The position numbers were made by a program, and so were the translations under genes. Shown one piece after another: positions 51 through 5,656 of a DNA stretch of 64,000 bases. The stretch's first letter is position 1. The number at the start of each line of letters is the position of its first letter. Source of the DNA: a virus. The DNA lies in the IMG/VR virus record IMGVR_UViG_3300032046_000008, positions 1-64,000 of that record. The stretch is one strand, 5' to 3'. The notes under the pieces are model-generated. The model was not told the origin of the DNA. It did not search any database and worked only from the letters and a program-made list of their open reading frames with translations.

Positions 51-473
51 TTAACTGTTCGACAACTCATTTTTGGCATCCTTTTCCTTTGAGTCTTTTG
101 ATCCAAATTTCTGCTCCATCCACCTAAAGATATAATCTACAACAGAGGTGCACTTTGGAATATCTGGATCATTTGTCCTGCCAGATGGACCGAAGCAGAC
201 ACCTGCGAGTTTCTTGCTTAGGATATTAAGCGGGATGCCATATTGCAGCAAGAGACTTGTTTCGACTCCTATTGTATCTAGGAGTCCTCGCAGCGTGGAA
301 CCTGCCTTGCCCATTTTGAGAAAGAGTTCTCCTGGCCTGCCATCCTCGTAGAGTCCCACAATAATGTAGAAATCAAAGATGCCCTGCTCTGGGTCAATTA
401 TCTCAACTCTATGAGTTATTGCTGGACGAGTTGGATCAAGATGAATACGTGCTACCATCCTGCGCACTCTCAA
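51..473 (-). CDS. Stand-alone TSCPD-domain protein (C-terminal domain of class II ribonucleotide reductase)
   Basis: Motifs FYIIVGLYEDGRPGELF, K.GS...GLLD...SLLLQYG, F.PSG.T and CTSVVDYIFRW match the NrdJ C-terminal TSCPD domain. Confidence 0.8.
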   Translation of the reverse strand: MRVRRMVARIHLDPTRPAITHRVEIIDPEQGIFDFYIIVGLYEDGRPGELFLKMGKAGSTLRGLLDTIGVETSLLLQYGIPLNILSKKLAGVCFGPSGRTNDPDIPKCTSVVDYIFRWMEQKFGSKDSKEKDAKNELSNS

Positions 474-787
474 TCTTCACCTTGCGCCTCCTTCGCGATG
501 CGGGCGGCACGGCGGAAGTCACCGAACGTGTACGTGGTACACTCCGCGCCCATTGGTGTCGTGAGAACGATCTTCTCATCATCGGCCCAGGCCCAATGCC
601 GTGAAAGTCGCCCTAATTTAGCAAATGGCTCCAGCGCCGCCCGCGCCTCCCTGAGCTCGGCGACGAGGGCGAGGGTTTGCTCGGCGCGACGCCGCTCTAT
701 CGTATCGCCCTCACTGTCAGCCACAACTATCCGGTGGTGTTCCTCCACCTCTATCCGCGCCAGATCGCGCTCGGTGATGTTGGTCAT
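470..787 (-). CDS. Hypothetical phage protein
   Basis: ATGA-type overlaps with neighbours; AALEPFA...TFGDFRRAA phage-type motif. Confidence 0.6.
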   Translation of the reverse strand: MTNITERDLARIEVEEHHRIVVADSEGDTIERRRAEQTLALVAELREARAALEPFAKLGRLSRHWAWADDEKIVLTTPMGAECTTYTFGDFRRAARIAKEAQGED

Positions 788-1596
788 GGCGTCACCTCAC
801 TTATTGTCACCTTACATGTCCCGTACCCACAGACCCGCTGGTGGGCCAACTCTGAGAGATCGATATCGATAACGTTGGCGCTACACCCTGGACAGACATC
901 CTGGACGATCACCCCCTGGCACCCCGCTGGTCCGCAGAGCATCAGGCGAACTCCACAGGGCCAGGGAGAATCTGGTCCGGTTGCGGCAATAGTAGGGTCC
1001 GACGAATCGTAAAGGTTATCCGCGTCGGCGTCGATTCGCAGCGCACATCCCAGCCATCCTCCGTTGTAGTCCACGGCGTCTCCCCAGGCGGCACCTCCTC
1101 CGTAGTGGGTCGCCCAGACGGTGGCGATTGCCGGCCAGCCTCCAGGGCTGCCACTTCCAAGATACGCATCCGTTCCTCCAGCCGATGCACTTGCTCCCAT
1201 ACTGGTCGGTGGATATGAAACGGCACCGTCAGCGGGCTCGATGCCGTCGCCGCGCCTGCCGAGGACGGCGTAGGGTTCAGTTCGCAGAAGGCTTTCTCCA
1301 GCCCAGTCTCGATGTCTACCAAGTCCCTGTGTAGCAGGTGTAAAGCATCCCTCAGCGCTGCATCCATCTACCGCTCCTTCGGCCGCCGTCGTATCGCCTC
1401 GTACTGCCAGCGTCGGTGTGCCCACTCCCTGCCCAAGAGGAACAGGTAGGTGCCGATCCCCATGCCGCCCAACACTGCCAACGCTACCCAGAGGATGATT
1501 TTGTCCATAAGGGCCTCCATTCGCAAAAGCTAGCCCCAAACTGATCGCCGTCAGGATTACGCCTAGCTGTGCCAGCCTGGGGATCGGGCACCTCAG
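784..1596 (-). CDS. Membrane-anchored RlpA-like/double-psi beta-barrel (DPBB) protein, paralog 1
   Basis: C-terminal ATHY...IAA...WPCG..L...V.VQD.CPGC...IDLS..A DPBB pattern; hydrophobic N-terminus; frame is open upstream of the TTG at 1539 to a CTG at 1596 (start uncertain). Confidence 0.7.
   Translation of the reverse strand: MRCPIPRLAQLGVILTAISLGLAFANGGPYGQNHPLGSVGSVGRHGDRHLPVPLGQGVGTPTLAVRGDTTAAEGAVDGCSAEGCFTPATQGLGRHRDWAGESLLRTEPYAVLGRRGDGIEPADGAVSYPPTSMGASASAGGTDAYLGSGSPGGWPAIATVWATHYGGGAAWGDAVDYNGGWLGCALRIDADADNLYDSSDPTIAATGPDSPWPCGVRLMLCGPAGCQGVIVQDVCPGCSANVIDIDLSELAHQRVCGYGTCKVTISEVTP
942..1367 (-). CDS. Nested out-of-frame ORF (141 aa, short coiled coil) inside DPBB paralog 1
   Basis: GAAGGAG RBS 6 nt before ATG; homologous nested ORF present in paralog 2. 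Confidence 0.5.
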   Translation of the reverse strand: MDAALRDALHLLHRDLVDIETGLEKAFCELNPTPSSAGAATASSPLTVPFHIHRPVWEQVHRLEERMRILEVAALEAGRQSPPSGRPTTEEVPPGETPWTTTEDGWDVRCESTPTRITFTIRRTLLLPQPDQILPGPVEFA

Positions 1597-1724
1597 CGCC
1601 CTTCCTTCTTGGGCTTCGTGTCCTCACGAAGCAAGCCCATCGTTTCGGCTACATCCTCGATTGTGCGGGTGACGGTTGCAGTCACCCTAGTTGCTAGTCT
1701 GTTGATCTCTTTGAGAACACCCAT
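1593..1724 (-). CDS. Small 43-aa protein (MGVLKEINRL...KKEGR)
   Basis: TGATG overlap with the upstream ORF and purine-rich RBS; below the ORF-track cutoff. Confidence 0.5.
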   Translation of the reverse strand: MGVLKEINRLATRVTATVTRTIEDVAETMGLLREDTKPKKEGR

Positions 1725-2020
1725 CACTCCTTCTCCTTCCCCGCTAGCGCGTCGAGGCGGGCGAGCATCGCCTGGACCTCACAACCTTCCATGTGCGGCT
1801 CAGGGTCTTTACACTCACAGGCGACACACTCTTTATCCGCCCCACGGAGGTCTGCGGCAGCCATCATCGCGGCGAGGACGGCATCATCGTCCGCATTTGA
1901 AGCCTGCCAGAACCGCTCGCTCGGTGCTCGGTCAGCAAGTTCTAGCAGGCGTTCCTTTGTCTCTTGGCGCCTCTTCCATGCCTTCTCAATCGTCATGATT
2001 GGCCACCGTCCAGCCGCCAC
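1724..2020 (-). CDS. Hypothetical protein with small Cys/His cluster
   Basis: CVACEC...H..GC motif; fits gene tiling. Confidence 0.55.
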   Translation of the reverse strand: MAAGRWPIMTIEKAWKRRQETKERLLELADRAPSERFWQASNADDDAVLAAMMAAADLRGADKECVACECKDPEPHMEGCEVQAMLARLDALAGKEKE

Positions 2021-2083
2021 ACATGCACCTTGTAACGAAGGATAGCAAGGGCGATCCGCAGTTCTGCTAGCGTCACTGCGGCT

Positions 2084-2446
2084 TCATACGAGATCATGGC
2101 CGGCCTCCTGGTGGCTTCCACCACTCTCGATATGGACACCATCAGGCATCTTCCTGGCTACCTTCGGCGCAGGCTGCGTGAGCAGGGCGCGAGCCTCACG
2201 AATACCCCCCTGGGCATCCATGAGCCGATCACTCTCGAAGTCATCGGCCAGCGTACGCCCGATGTCGTAGTCAGCACCATCGAGGCGCTTGATAGCCTCA
2301 GCCTGTCGCTCCTTCAGCGCCCCCACCCGCTGCTCCGCCGCCGCGAGGTCGGCCCGCAGTTCCTCATGGCTGGCAGCGAGTTCCTGTAGGATCGGGTACT
2401 CTACCCAACGCTGTGCGATGTCCTTCACCTGGTCAGCCGTCAGCAT
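2084..2446 (-). CDS. Hypothetical coiled-coil protein
   Basis: GGAGG RBS before MLTADQ; IREARALL motif shared with 8886..9155. Confidence 0.55.
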   Translation of the reverse strand: MLTADQVKDIAQRWVEYPILQELAASHEELRADLAAAEQRVGALKERQAEAIKRLDGADYDIGRTLADDFESDRLMDAQGGIREARALLTQPAPKVARKMPDGVHIESGGSHQEAGHDLV

Positions 2447-2723
2447 CACGCGCCTCCTTGAAGTGGGCGACGGCGGTGCTGAGGGCAACCACTACGGTGC
2501 GCTCTGTAAGGTCTAGGTTGCCGTATCTCAGGATAACCAGGGCGCCTTCTGCCGCCTCTACCAGTTCCCCCACCGCCTTCTCCATCTCGGCGGGGTCCTT
2601 GAAGCCGAGGCGGGCGCAGGCGTCAAGAACAGTTTGGGCCTTCCGATACCGTTGCACTTCTGGACATTCAGTATCCAGGTCGTGAACCGTATGGCACCGT
2701 GTACAAAAGCCTGTCGCGCTCAC
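2433..2723 (-). CDS. Hypothetical protein with N-terminal zinc-finger-like motif
   Basis: CTRCHTVH...CP; RBS and overlap with neighbours. Confidence 0.55.
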   Translation of the reverse strand: MSATGFCTRCHTVHDLDTECPEVQRYRKAQTVLDACARLGFKDPAEMEKAVGELVEAAEGALVILRYGNLDLTERTVVVALSTAVAHFKEARDADG

Positions 2724-2965
2724 TCCTCAACCTCCTCCACAAGAGAATACATGCGCCAATTCATATCCGCGTCTCCGATCGGTCCAGTAAATGATCTATG
2801 ATCTTGATAAGCATCAACTGACCAAATGTGCACAACCCCACAAATTGTGCAACGACCATGAAAATGAGGATATTCACTTTCCTCACAGCAGCATCCTACA
2901 GTCTCTATCTTCCAGCGATGCTTGCAAATTATTTCCAAAAGAGACATATCTAACTTTCTATCCAA
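2720..2965 (-). CDS. Small Cys/His-rich hypothetical protein
   Basis: CKHRW...CTICG motif; tiles between neighbours. Confidence 0.5.
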   Translation of the reverse strand: MDRKLDMSLLEIICKHRWKIETVGCCCEESEYPHFHGRCTICGVVHIWSVDAYQDHRSFTGPIGDADMNWRMYSLVEEVEE

Positions 2966-3805
2966 TTAATGTCTCAAGATCTCTGCAGTTATTTCACATG
3001 TCCCATAACCACAGACATTTTGATGCGCCTGCTCTGACAGATCGATAGTATAGATTCCACATCCTGGACAAGTGTCTTGAACGATCACTTCCTGGCACCC
3101 CGCTGGTCCGCAGAGCATCAAGTGGACTCCGCACCTCCAAGAAGATTCATATCCGGTGGCTGCGATGGTAGGATCGGACGAATCGTACAGATTATCGCCT
3201 CTTTGGTTCTCCGCACGTCCACATCCCAACCACCCGCCATTGTAATCCAATGTATCACCCCAGGCTGGGCCTCCTCCATAATGGGTTGCCCATATTCGGG
3301 TGGCGATTGCGGGCCAGCCTCCAGGTTGAGCACCTTCTGCTTCAGGATTATCATCTCCGTCTGTATCTGGTCTGCCCACTCCTGCCACTGCTCGGGGGAT
3401 AGGGGCGGGCTCGATTCCTGCGCCTCGTCGCCCGAGGACGGCGTAGGCGACCAATCGATTATCTGACCCTCTGGTCCCACTGCAAAACCAGCTTGCCAGA
3501 GTTTGTGTGCGGCCTTGAGACCCAGCATATAACCCCGAGTGCGAGCCGCATATACATCGTCCTCTGTTGGCATCATCTATCGCCTCCTTATGGCATTCCT
3601 CTCCATAGGCAAGCAGCCATTGTGTCTCCGCCTGTAAGTTCCATTGACAATCTGTGCACCGAAGAAGAGCAGCGCGAGCGTCAGGACTGCGCCCGTCAAC
3701 ATACCCGCAAAGAACAAGTTCATTAAGGCCTCCTTTCTGATATACAATACCGATGCTGGTTAATCCGACCAGGAGCAGGCCCAGCACCGGCCTTAACCAT
3801 CTCAG
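2966..3805 (-). CDS. Membrane-anchored RlpA-like/DPBB protein, paralog 2
   Basis: C-terminal domain highly similar to 784..1596 (WATHYGGG.AWGD..DYNGGWLGC, NLYDSSDPTIAATG, CGPAGCQ, CPGC, DLSE.AHQ.VCGYGTC); N-terminal TM; start at GTG 3787 or CTG 3805. Confidence 0.7.
   Translation of the reverse strand: MRWLRPVLGLLLVGLTSIGIVYQKGGLNELVLCGYVDGRSPDARAALLRCTDCQWNLQAETQWLLAYGEECHKEAIDDANRGRCICGSHSGLYAGSQGRTQTLASWFCSGTRGSDNRLVAYAVLGRRGAGIEPAPIPRAVAGVGRPDTDGDDNPEAEGAQPGGWPAIATRIWATHYGGGPAWGDTLDYNGGWLGCGRAENQRGDNLYDSSDPTIAATGYESSWRCGVHLMLCGPAGCQEVIVQDTCPGCGIYTIDLSEQAHQNVCGYGTCEITAEILRH
3118..3576 (-). CDS. Nested out-of-frame ORF (152 aa) inside DPBB paralog 2
   Basis: TAAGGAGG RBS 6 nt before ATG; similar to 942..1367 (PTPSS, LEAG.QSPP, GWDV, TIR..L..QP). 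Confidence 0.5.
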   Translation of the reverse strand: MMPTEDDVYAARTRGYMLGLKAAHKLWQAGFAVGPEGQIIDWSPTPSSGDEAQESSPPLSPEQWQEWADQIQTEMIILKQKVLNLEAGPQSPPEYGQPIMEEAQPGVIHWITMAGGWDVDVRRTKEAIICTIRPILPSQPPDMNLLGGAEST

Positions 3806-3864
3806 AGCACCTTTTCTCCGCTATTACGGAACCTCATCGTGACCTCCCAATTCTGCCCCGCCAT

Positions 3865-4101
3865 TTATTCTATCGTCCTCAACACAGTCTTTGGAGATAT
3901 TCTTATCATGCCAAGAACTAACCAATTCTGACCTCTGGAATCATGTTTATTCTGCCACTTTCTGGCGAAAATCCTAGCCTCGTCAGCATTAGGAGCCCTA
4001 AAGCCATGGAGAATGATCCCAGCCTCACTATCTATGATGAAGTATTGCTTTTCCAATCGACCAACTCCAGAAACTTCTCCAACGGCAACACAACCAACCA
4101 T
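3865..4101 (-). CDS. Hypothetical protein
   Basis: ORF tiles the gap; true start probably downstream of the annotated one. Confidence 0.4.
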   Translation of the reverse strand: MVGCVAVGEVSGVGRLEKQYFIIDSEAGIILHGFRAPNADEARIFARKWQNKHDSRGQNWLVLGMIRISPKTVLRTIE

Positions 4102-4470: not shown

Positions 4471-4698
4471 TCAAATACCCAATTTGCTCTTACTTCGCAT
4501 TGCTGCAAGTTGTTGTTTCTGGGCCTCAGAGAGTGGTTTATGTGCGCGTACATAAGCATGCTCCACTGCCGACGTATATCCTGTCCAGCCACGGAGCAAC
4601 AACCTCCTAGCATAAAGATCAAAGTGTTCTGGTCCACATTCTTCATAAAGAGCCTTGCAAGCCTCACAATGATTTGGATCTAGTTTGTCCCGTTTCAT
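4471..4698 (-). CDS. Hypothetical protein
   Basis: ATGA overlap with the upstream ORF; CEAC motif. Confidence 0.5.
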   Translation of the reverse strand: MKRDKLDPNHCEACKALYEECGPEHFDLYARRLLLRGWTGYTSAVEHAYVRAHKPLSEAQKQQLAAMRSKSKLGI

Positions 4699-5033
4699 GG
4701 TGTCCTTCCTGTTGTTATCTGGGCCTCGAGAGCCCGCAGCGTAATTTGGCGTGACACAGTATCCTCAAATTGACCATAAATTGCCCACAATTCTTTTTCT
4801 TTGAACCTAACCACAGGTAATGTAAATCGTTCAAATAATTCTTTATCACGAACTGCGTCCTTCTCAGAATCATGCCAATATTCTCCATCAGCCTCAAAAG
4901 CCAAATGATGCGGTACCAACTTGTGAGTCTCGGACATTTTGCGTTTGGTCTCAATCGAATGTTTCCTGCCAAGCATTGCCTGACGCATTTTCTCGATCGA
5001 TTCTGGTTTGTGCCGAAAGCCAATTTTGGGCAT
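4695..5033 (-). CDS. Degenerate homing endonuclease (NUMOD3 repeats plus truncated DUF559/Vsr-like domain)
   Basis: G..H..ES.EKMR and GRKHS.ETK.KMS NUMOD3 motifs; FEADGEYWH...D..RD nuclease half; C-terminus duplicates that of the upstream gene. Confidence 0.65.
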   Translation of the reverse strand: MPKIGFRHKPESIEKMRQAMLGRKHSIETKRKMSETHKLVPHHLAFEADGEYWHDSEKDAVRDKELFERFTLPVVRFKEKELWAIYGQFEDTVSRQITLRALEAQITTGRTP

Positions 5034-5656
5034 TAGGGATGTCTCCCTGTAGTTATTTGGGCCTCTAAACTTTTTATAGTTATCATACGGCTAACGGTAT
5101 CCCAGGAAATTCTATAGGCATCCCGCAGCCCCTTGATAATACATAGTTTGGCATCTTCTTCTATGAAGAGACGCTTAGTCTGACGCAATGTCTCATTTAC
5201 TTGAAGAATTGTTGCCTCCTTAGTCTTCTCTGTGAGCTTGCTGCTATCTTGAAGTTTGGAAGTAGCTATCATCATTGCCACGTCGTAACCTTCCTTAAGA
5301 GTACTGCGGCGACTCGTTATCTGGCCCATCAGGGTCTCCAGATAAGTCAAGTAAGCTCCAAACTTTTGGAGCAATTCGCTTAATTCACCTGTTGTGATAT
5401 CATCTCTCTGAGGCAGAGTTTCAAGATTCGGCTCTGGCACTCCTAGATTCTGCACCCACTCAGTGCTATCCTGGAAGACAGTCCACCACCCCCAGCCGCG
5501 CCGTACCGCGATAATCGAAAGTGGCAAAACGATAGGATCAATCCCTTGCTCATGCATTGTCTTGACTTGTTCCCATAGAGGATCTCCCTCAAGACATTTC
5601 CAATTCTGTCCGTATTCGTCTCGAATGAGAATTTGGGTCTCCGTCTCCGCTATCAA
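5033..5656 (-). CDS. UvsY-like recombination mediator (putative)
   Basis: Long helical protein ending ...SRMITI; lies in the RecA/exonuclease operon. Confidence 0.4.
   Translation of the reverse strand: MIAETETQILIRDEYGQNWKCLEGDPLWEQVKTMHEQGIDPIVLPLSIIAVRRGWGWWTVFQDSTEWVQNLGVPEPNLETLPQRDDITTGELSELLQKFGAYLTYLETLMGQITSRRSTLKEGYDVAMMIATSKLQDSSKLTEKTKEATILQVNETLRQTKRLFIEEDAKLCIIKGLRDAYRISWDTVSRMITIKSLEAQITTGRHP

Follow-up and report, generated by a model that had tools for sequence, protein, structure and literature searches.

Probable dual coding in two anchored double-psi beta-barrel genes of a sediment phage

In phage phiX174, the lysis protein E is encoded by an overprinted gene inside gene D and acts as a single-gene lysis protein. 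Lysis of the phage 21 type depends on a signal-anchor-release (SAR) endolysin and a pinholin; a weakly hydrophobic N-terminal helix rich in Gly, Ala, Ser and Thr tethers the muralytic domain, which is released on depolarisation. In addition, a holin-like gene, hol187, is said to have been described in 1999 as lying, in a different reading frame, within the phage wall-enzyme gene ply187 (J Bacteriol 181:4452, listed among the references of PMC6023083). The present work deals with a locus in the first 64 kb (64,000 nucleotides; here called the window) of a 101,905-bp IMG/VR phage record with direct terminal repeats (IMGVR_UViG_3300032046_000008). Two paralogous units of this locus (copy 1, 784..1596; copy 2, 2966..3805) each carry an outer gene for a membrane-anchored protein with a C-terminal double-psi beta-barrel (DPBB) domain. 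Each unit probably represents genuine dual coding, in which the DPBB gene (frame B) would be overprinted in its linker part by an open reading frame (ORF) for a small membrane protein, ORF1, and then by a helical ORF2, both read in the +1 frame (frame A).

As in ply187, a putative small membrane-protein gene lies wholly inside a predicted wall-enzyme gene, on the same strand, out of frame and with its own translation signals. Whereas Ply187 is a CHAP/amidase endolysin, the outer gene here is predicted to encode a signal-anchored DPBB protein, the nested genes occupy its linker part and form two cistrons, and the locus is not part of a lysis cassette. Like phiX174 E, the putative ORF1 product is a small one-helix membrane protein encoded in the +1 frame of another gene; the differences are that the phage is a large double-stranded DNA (dsDNA) phage, that the nested gene is conserved across divergent lineages and that a second nested cistron follows. 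With SAR endolysins the locus may share a weakly hydrophobic N-terminal helix that would tether a predicted wall-active domain outside the membrane, and it has a co-encoded putative small membrane protein. Here, however, the frame-B anchors consist of only 33-44% Gly, Ala, Ser and Thr by hand count, the domain is not a lysozyme, and the small membrane protein, with its single helix, is encoded by a nested gene and not by an adjacent one, again outside any lysis cassette. With its membrane helix and charged C-terminal tail, the small ORF1 product resembles holins, which by an operational definition are small proteins with at least one such helix and such a tail; this is a resemblance only, with no match to a PHROG holin family.

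Two-component spanin genes of the Rz/Rz1 type occur in embedded and overlapped architectures and are systematically missed by gene callers (PMC6139136). Common to them and the units described here are a same-strand gene nested in, or overlapping, a phage envelope-protein gene in a shifted frame, and one partner with a membrane helix and a coiled coil. Unlike in o-spanins, none of the nested products has a lipoprotein signal or a lipobox Cys, and unlike in i-spanins the basic residues following the nested helix predict an N-out/C-in topology, which is the opposite orientation. Moreover, the outer gene differs from Rz in being an enzyme-like DPBB gene, and the neighbours are early genes.

RlpA, to which the outer protein had been likened in an earlier note on this DNA, is a lytic transglycosylase (PMC6895207). 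The outer proteins share with RlpA, with expansin domain 1 and with a papain inhibitor (PDB entries 9ms5, 4jcw, 3d30, 4avr and 5ntb) the double-psi beta-barrel and a conserved Asp equivalent to D78. Unlike RlpA, neither copy has a SPOR match or a lipobox Cys after the anchor; a membrane anchor takes the place of the lipoprotein or cleaved signal. Unlike the bacterial expansin EXLX1, they lack a second, CBM63-like domain: the ORFs end 3-5 residues past the DPBB domain, and Foldseek alignments cover ~0.38 of the expansin chains. Extra cysteines (CPGC) further distinguish them from these known proteins. The pattern THYG...DPTIAA...D.CPGC...IDLSE resembles the RlpA pattern WYG...TAAH...DRGP...IDLS.

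Layout of the two units

All ORFs of both units lie on the minus strand. The outer ORF of copy 1 (784..1596) comprises 270 codons counted from a CTG at 1596 within an open frame of 279 codons, and that of copy 2 (2966..3805) 279 codons from a CTG at 3805 within an open frame of 284. Both consist of an anchor, a linker and a DPBB domain. The predicted membrane anchor of copy 1, LAQLGVILTAISLGLAFA, maps to 1522..1575, with Arg residues before and NGG after it; that of copy 2, VLGLLLVGLTSIGIV, maps to 3743..3787 and is followed by YQKGG. Both copies thereby match the N-terminus of the protein family in frame B (...LGLAFANGG... and ...IGIVYQKGG...), with arginines preceding the helix. The DPBB domain (GGW...THYG...DPTIAA...CPGC...IDLSE) is encoded at 787..1143 in copy 1 and at 2969..3322 in copy 2. 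Between anchor and domain, within the region of the nested ORFs, frame B contains a shared motif, YAVLGRRGDGIEPA at 1231..1272 in copy 1 and YAVLGRRGAGIEPA at 3404..3445 in copy 2.

The earlier note had described one nested gene per unit, 942..1367 within 784..1596 and 3118..3576 within 2966..3805, on the same strand in a shifted frame. The ORF list, the raw sequence and the three-frame translation agree with this nesting, and the shift to +1 follows by arithmetic (1596 - 1508 = 88 = 3 x 29 + 1). The strong Shine-Dalgarno (SD) sequences 6 nt ahead of the nested ATG codons are also as it gave them, namely GAAGGAG-CGGTAG-ATG (ATG 1367) and TAAGGAGG-CGATAG-ATG (ATG 3576). In both copies, the 6-nt spacer contains the TAG stop codon of another frame-A ORF located directly upstream. 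Because this TAG closes a further SD-led frame-A ORF, there are two nested cistrons per unit. The view of a conserved overprinted two-gene unit holds for the overprint, which is found in both copies and in two independent relatives from metagenomic phages (L004 and L007, see below); it had overlooked that the nested cistrons are two and that the first, ORF1, is a predicted bitopic membrane protein.

ORF1 of copy 1 (1368..1508; 46 aa) begins with MDK, continues with a membrane helix and a basic tail and ends at the TAG 1370..1368. Its SD sequence GGAGG (1518..1514) lies 5 nt before ATG 1508; alternative starts are ATG 1520 and TTG 1526. ORF1 of copy 2 (3577..3723; 48 aa) likewise encodes a membrane helix and a basic tail and ends at the TAG 3579..3577, with GGAGG (3733..3729) 5 nt before ATG 3723 and TTG 3747 as alternative start. 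In ORF1, ~20 hydrophobic residues (KD19 2.0-2.3) are followed by a tail with 7-8 basic residues (Arg, Lys or His).

ORF2, the gene of the earlier note, has 141 aa in copy 1 (942..1367) and 152 aa in copy 2 (3118..3576). In copy 1, a helix, a PTPSS linker and a second helix are encoded at ~1146..1367, and the remainder (942..1145) is a tail over the DPBB-coding part; in copy 2, helices are predicted at residues 5-28 and 61-86, again with a tail over the DPBB-coding part. Both ORF2s stop at a homologous TGA within the conserved outer-frame residues L-M-L-C. The contrast drawn earlier between a helical nested product and a linker-like outer product over the 5' half of the overlap fits these predictions, although AF2 confidence for the two helices is low.

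Evidence for two coding frames

The nested layout recurs in relatives, whose DNA was drawn from viral, metagenome and genome collections. L004 is a 42-kb viral contig (53% GC) with the same arrangement: after the frame-B anchor and a Gly-derived SD sequence, frame A reads M-D-D-R, a membrane helix, a basic stretch and ~90 helical residues and extends into the DPBB region, with the equivalents of ORF1 and ORF2 fused in one ORF of 174 aa. In L007, frame B starts with ATG (106..837), and frame A contains an SD-led ORF1 with ATG (M-D-D-E, helix; 31 aa), a TAG, and then TAGGAGG and the ATG of an ORF2, in which a helix and a basic stretch are followed by a long helix. Start, helix and basic tail of the nested ORF are common to the four lineages (copy 1, copy 2, L004 and L007) though the frame-B sequence beneath them is unalignable, and the positive-inside charge pattern is alike in all four. 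The start that follows the GG-derived SD sequence is ATGGAC (M-D) in copy 1, L004 and L007 and ATGAAC (M-N) in copy 2. Where the cistrons are separate, they are divided by a TAG and an SD-led ATG (TAGATG in copies 1 and 2; TAG, three codons and ATG in L007). The single-frame relatives L008, L010 and L012 contain no hydrophobic +1 segment (maximum KD19 -1.1 to -0.25).

A different +1 linker ORF was seen at 2756-2938 of L003, and also in L006, L013 and L014. It has an SD sequence and an ATG and encodes a Cys-rich, zinc-ribbon-like product of 60 aa; in the L003 lineage it is followed by a second +1 ORF, which starts with MLPALLLLLLG and has an Arg-rich tail over the DPBB region.

Given that ORF1 and ORF2 share one frame and are a single TAG apart in both copies, and that they form a single ORF in L004, the TAG might be read through or recoded to yield a fused protein as in L004. 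This is very improbable. The 101,905-bp genome contains no tRNA genes, in-frame TAG is no commoner than TGA or TAA between adjacent in-frame segments, and TAG terminates many long ORFs. In addition, SD sequence and ATG are placed exactly at the TAG in both copies, and L007 has the same succession of stop, SD sequence and ATG at a different place, as coupled separate cistrons look. The fusion in L004 bears as well on the soluble partner proposed in the earlier note: ORF2 is better read as the split-off cytoplasmic half of a membrane protein, and less well as something that partners the DPBB domain.

Codon simulations were run both ways. With the frame-B protein fixed and local codon usage, frame A was scored for an SD-led ATG ORF that spans at least 40 codons and includes a helix of the observed hydrophobicity. 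Such an ORF arose as a by-product of frame B with P = 0.003 for copy 1, 0.013 for copy 2, <0.00025 for L004 and 0.0003 for L007. With the frame-A protein fixed, frame B was scored for absence of stop codons over 119-134 codons. Using genome or local codon usage, P was 0.0002 (copy 1), <0.0002 (copy 2), 0.0004 (L004) and 0.036 (L007); under the stricter permutation within the region, the corresponding values were 0.22, 0.0086, 0.007 and 0.47. The scarcity of frame-A stop codons given frame B was not significant (P = 0.19 to 0.35). Because few frame-A stops are expected given frame B, ORF length alone proves nothing; what counts is the combination of signal, helix and recurrence.

These simulations bear on the main rival explanation, which we regard as unlikely, though less so than the other alternatives considered in this work. 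It holds that only frame B is a gene and that the frame-A ORFs are shadows left open by the Gly-, Ala-, Asp- and Pro-rich linker codons, with SD sequences that come free from Gly-Gly and Lys/Glu-Gly codons. The expected paucity of +1 stops agrees with it, as does the fact that the SD-forming GG of the anchor is also kept in single-frame relatives. This same fact suggests how a nested gene arose. On the other side stand the joint occurrence of SD sequence, ATG, at least 40 codons and a membrane-grade helix, with the low P values given above and its absence from the three single-frame controls, the persistence of the nested features while the frame-B sequence has diverged beyond alignment, the retention of the TAG and second SD-led ATG in copy 1, copy 2 and L007, and the identical charge pattern across the four lineages.

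Several further observations weigh against dual coding, most of them in favour of a frame-B gene alone. (i) The simulation P values depend on the codon-usage null that is chosen. (ii) A codon model trained on the long genes of the phage favours frame B over the nested region; this model disfavours the composition of membrane proteins and gives credit for a lack of stops, and the conflict is left standing. (iii) Frame-A proteins are orphans: they have no PHROG or Pfam match, homologue searches with them returned only self-matches, P0003 and P0004, no usable match was obtained from the ESM Atlas, and outside the loci described here they have no homologues. (iv) The AF2 model of ORF2 has a pLDDT of 47.5, with two helices at pLDDT 55-64 and the rest disordered. 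(v) No part of the gene evolves faster than the nested region, as might be expected of a linker; the 31 substitutions that distinguish L003 from L013 are all confined to the stretch separating signal peptide and DPBB domain, and the flanks are identical. (vi) RNA runs carrying the locus were looked for, and none is listed. (vii) In a metagenomic relative of copy 2 (a contig in run X3, here the X3 contig), 310 nt (3289..3600) are replaced by 124 nt, and most of ORF2 is gone. (viii) Population variants in the ORF1 region change frame A more often than frame B.

The variants of point (viii) come from a test on 23 variants, among 40 listed of 285 variant rows, from sediment runs. Seven of the listed variants lie in 1417..1492. 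In frame B, four of them are synonymous and three non-synonymous; in frame A, one is synonymous and six are non-synonymous. In frame A, they amount to V>L, A>V, M>L, L>W, H>R and L>P, mostly the exchange of one hydrophobic residue for another. Such a pattern is what dual constraint would pass, in a small sample of n = 7 only.

In the X3 contig, the difference of 186 nt equals 62 codons, and frame B is preserved; the segment 3600-3892 is kept at ~12% divergence, and the DPBB part is ~20% divergent. Because this relative of copy 2 loses most of ORF2 and keeps frame B, ORF1 appears to be the conserved nested gene and ORF2 to be dispensable. Conservation of the nested ORF and its SD sequence among homologues, on which the earlier note had staked its reading, is accordingly seen for ORF1 in the four lineages; ORF2 is variable and in this one relative largely absent.

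The long open frame of 141 and 152 codons with an equivalent stop, which had been singled out in the earlier note, exists as a layout and is no more than expected by chance. Every homologue has an open +1 frame across the N-terminal half of the DPBB domain, even L005, L008, L010, L011 and L012, in which a frame-A gene upstream is lacking, and when the DPBB codons are shuffled synonymously this frame remains open at about the observed rate (P >= 0.3). Suppressed synonymous variation, another proposed sign of overprinting, was not found there either: third-position identity between copies 1 and 2 is 0.50 in the overlapped half of the DPBB domain versus 0.56 in the free half. The listed population variants in the nested tail over the DPBB domain are synonymous in frame A in two cases and non-synonymous in ten. 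The 3' ~70 codons of ORF2 over the DPBB domain are an unselected passenger.

Coding in frame B was assessed by comparing copy 1 with copy 2 at frame-B codon positions 1/2/3. Identity was 0.73/0.62/0.50 in the anchor, where all indels are multiples of three, and 0.77/0.81/0.50 in the DPBB domain. The 14-residue motif YAVLGRRGxGIEPA (1231..1272 in copy 1; tested over 1225..1266) is kept between the copies within an otherwise unalignable linker and gave 0.92/0.92/0.55, with five synonymous codon differences. Because codon-position identity shows frame-B coding in anchor, motif and DPBB domain, frame B is translated through the region of the nested ORFs. Neither L004 nor P0001 nor any of the 150 best family representatives contains the motif. 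In the ORF1 region and the 5' region of ORF2, the two copies are too diverged for codon-position tests. BLAST of the linker products of both frames against 154 family proteins gave nothing significant. Plots of GC content at third codon positions (GC3) were discarded as support for frame A: GC3 falls in the same way in the linkers of relatives with a single frame, and the plots also fail to recover the known frame in the DPBB domain of copy 1 itself. Public-collection gene callers picked frame A in L004 (P0003) and in copy 2 (P0004; 136 aa of ORF2).

How frame B is initiated is less straightforward. The outer ORFs have no ATG, GTG or TTG at 1596 or 3805; the CTG present there shares bases (CTGA) with the TGA that closes an upstream ORF in the other frame. 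Canonical starts appear first at TTG 1539 in copy 1, with which the anchor would be lost, and at GTG 3787 in copy 2. The upstream ORF of copy 1 (1593..1727) encodes 44 aa, and its TGA (1595..1593) overlaps the CTG 1596..1594. That of copy 2 (3802..3837) has 11 codons (MRFRNSGEKVL), a GGGAGG 5 nt before its ATG and a TGA overlapping CTG 3805. An overlap of a stop with a near-cognate start ahead of the anchor also occurs in relatives, as CTGA in L003/L013 and as ATAG in L004. Short leader ORFs of 11-14 codons with a strong SD sequence and a basic peptide are found in copy 2, L003/L013 (~2643-2684 in L003) and L004 (~2535-2580); the leaders of L003 and L013 differ by two substitutions, both synonymous in the leader frame. 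The promoter and terminator scan gave nothing above chance.

The lack of a canonical frame-B start before the anchor in copy 1, L003 and L004 is a further point against dual coding. It would suit an arrangement in which frame A is the main upstream frame, the frame-B linker is untranslated, and the DPBB domain is either joined by a -1 frameshift near CTGGAGGCT (L-E-A / x-G-G), which would yield a fusion of coiled coil and DPBB domain, or internally initiated after the GGAGG located there. Relative to frame A, frame B is indeed -1; copy 1, copy 2 and L004 conserve CTGGAGGCT at the boundary of the two frames, a similar sequence is present in L003, and an ATC lies 7-10 nt downstream of the GGAGG in copy 1, copy 2 and L004. 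We nevertheless consider this arrangement improbable. Neither an X_XXY_YYZ slippery site nor a homopolymer is present at the junction in copy 1, copy 2, L007 or L003, and the sole site in L004 falls within the DPBB domain. Purifying selection acts on frame B at the YAVLGRRG motif and the anchor, well upstream of the junction, and the frame is held open across 120-134 codons that would not be needed. A frame-A helix followed by positive charges would place a fused, cysteine-rich DPBB domain in the cytoplasm, whereas the topology of the frame-B anchor suits export. Finally, the whole family has anchor and DPBB domain in one frame.

The family of anchored DPBB proteins

Anchor and DPBB domain were found in one frame in copy 1, copy 2, L003, L004, L005, L007, L008, L010, L011, L012 and P0001. 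Members of the family typically begin with a hydrophobic stretch that ends in GG; a linker of 20-200 residues, often rich in Pro and Thr, then leads to a DPBB domain at the C-terminus. Judged from these sequence features, the outer frame is a real gene for a membrane-anchored DPBB protein, in agreement with the earlier note and with the fold predictions described below.

A profile of the C-terminal domain matched domain 1 of a bacterial expansin (4jcw, Clavibacter) in the PDB with E = 1.9e-8. In the HMMER alignment, IDLSE is paired with HLDLSE of 4jcw, such that the DLSE aspartate corresponds to D78 of the Clavibacter expansin, the residue replaced in the D78N mutant 4js7. The Asp of IDLSE is invariant in seven family sequences. 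The AF2 model of the DPBB domain (pLDDT 83, pTM 0.79) retrieved 9ms5 (E = 2.9e-6), 4avr, 5ntb and 3d30 from the PDB with Foldseek, with TM values of ~0.58-0.6. Besides expansin domain 1, the Foldseek matches include PA4485 and a papain inhibitor from Streptomyces, as well as kiwellins and a baseplate protein of a cyanophage. A search of the ESM Atlas with frame B gave RlpA and expansin leads (0.84). The assignment as DPBB/RlpA-like is therefore upheld by fold and profile. It falls short by the Pfam threshold: the gathering threshold of DPBB_1 (PF03330) was missed (best score 13.8 versus 28.8 bits, copy 2 only), and the Pfam scan gave no match for either full outer ORF. PHROGs likewise yielded no usable match for the frame-B products.

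The cyanophage match, a baseplate-initiator domain of cyanophage A-1(L) (8kea_A), was observed to resemble the DPBB model; DPBB domains thus also occur in phage virion proteins.

The HMMER profile scan yielded 868 representative proteins. A single-frame anchor-linker-DPBB gene was also noticed in L015 (DATBWN010000222.1), a contig of 70% GC from a Dehalococcoidia metagenome-assembled genome (MAG), with L008 and L009 noted beside it. The copy in this MAG may point to the range of hosts in which the family occurs, or else be a prophage. An exact 25-mer scan of viral contigs for close relatives of the locus gave no match.

Surroundings, proposed mechanism and meaning

The source phage has a genome of ~102 kb with 49% GC, and the record is present in DNA runs from sediment metagenomes. 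Neighbouring genes belong to the early or DNA-metabolism type (TSCPD, NUMOD3 and exonuclease-like genes in the window, a primase gene in L004) and do not form a lysis cassette, in line with the earlier statement that the units lie outside the lysis module. Phage_lysozyme and Amidase_2 were searched for and were absent, and the lysis module mentioned in the earlier note was not located.

GC content is 61% in copy 1 and 53% in copy 2. In the sediment runs, the stretch around copy 1 (~980-2420) is broken up into numerous short variant contigs, whereas 2418-3900 is found on a single clean contig in X1. Across 700..3900, the contigs of runs X1-X4 include dozens of variants, which diverge by 1-20%. 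The region of ~400-2750, as opposed to 2750-3900, is suggested to be a recombining or imported hypervariable module. Elsewhere in the window, two adjacent ORFs, 4698-5033 and 5036-5656, share a C-terminal peptide (...LEAQITTGR.P), and one of them has a NUMOD3 motif; the pair may be a homing-endonuclease-related duplication.

In the mechanism proposed for dual coding, one stretch of mRNA would be read in two frames in each unit. Frame B would be initiated by termination at the upstream stop and reinitiation at the overlapping CTG or, in copy 2, at GTG 3787. Its product would be an exported, membrane-anchored protein with a cysteine-rich DPBB domain that binds or cleaves the cell wall. The predicted signal-anchor consists of positively charged residues and a helix rich in Gly, Ala, Ser and Thr that ends in GG; the linker after it is long and little conserved. 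At the same time, the anchor's Gly-Gly codons would supply the first nested SD sequence (GGAGG), a plausible birth route of the nested gene. ORF1 and ORF2 would be translationally coupled, each with its own SD sequence. According to the positive-inside rule, the ORF1 product would be bitopic, with an acidic or neutral N-terminus outside and the basic tail inside. ORF2 would encode a helix-linker-helix protein, a detached cytoplasmic continuation of ORF1 as it exists in fused form in L004, and would run on into the DPBB-coding part up to the first stop.

With respect to function, we tentatively suggest that the ORF1 product works on the membrane that also holds the anchored DPBB protein, either as a holin- or antiholin-like protein or as a release or immunity factor for the tethered domain; the whole would then be akin to a signal-anchored lysin with an embedded holin. 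A wider proposal, put forward as a speculative one, is that the units belong to an ancient dual-coding module and represent an undescribed phage envelope system, in which the nested bitopic membrane protein, with a coiled-coil part in the cytoplasm, gates, releases or neutralises the tethered domain; early expression, reinitiation at a CTG overlapping the stop of an upstream ORF and an SD sequence born from Gly-Gly codons would be its hallmarks.

What is new compared with the described systems is the anchored-DPBB nature of the outer gene, the position of the overprint on its linker, the presence of two nested cistrons that are fused or split depending on the lineage, and the location outside a lysis cassette. 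Apart from Rz/Rz1, few cases of same-strand dual coding are on record for large dsDNA phages, and such genes are suppressed by gene callers. The locus offers an unusually testable case, with a nested gene in four lineages whose outer frame is unalignable, single-frame relatives as natural controls and a visible birth route. The ~870 representatives indicate that anchored DPBB proteins form a large family, so far unannotated, which extends over phages and uncultured bacteria, among them that of the Dehalococcoidia MAG. If the nested protein controls the tethered DPBB domain, the units would embody a new logic of lysis or wall remodelling; if it does not, they would still provide a clean example of overprinting on a disordered linker.

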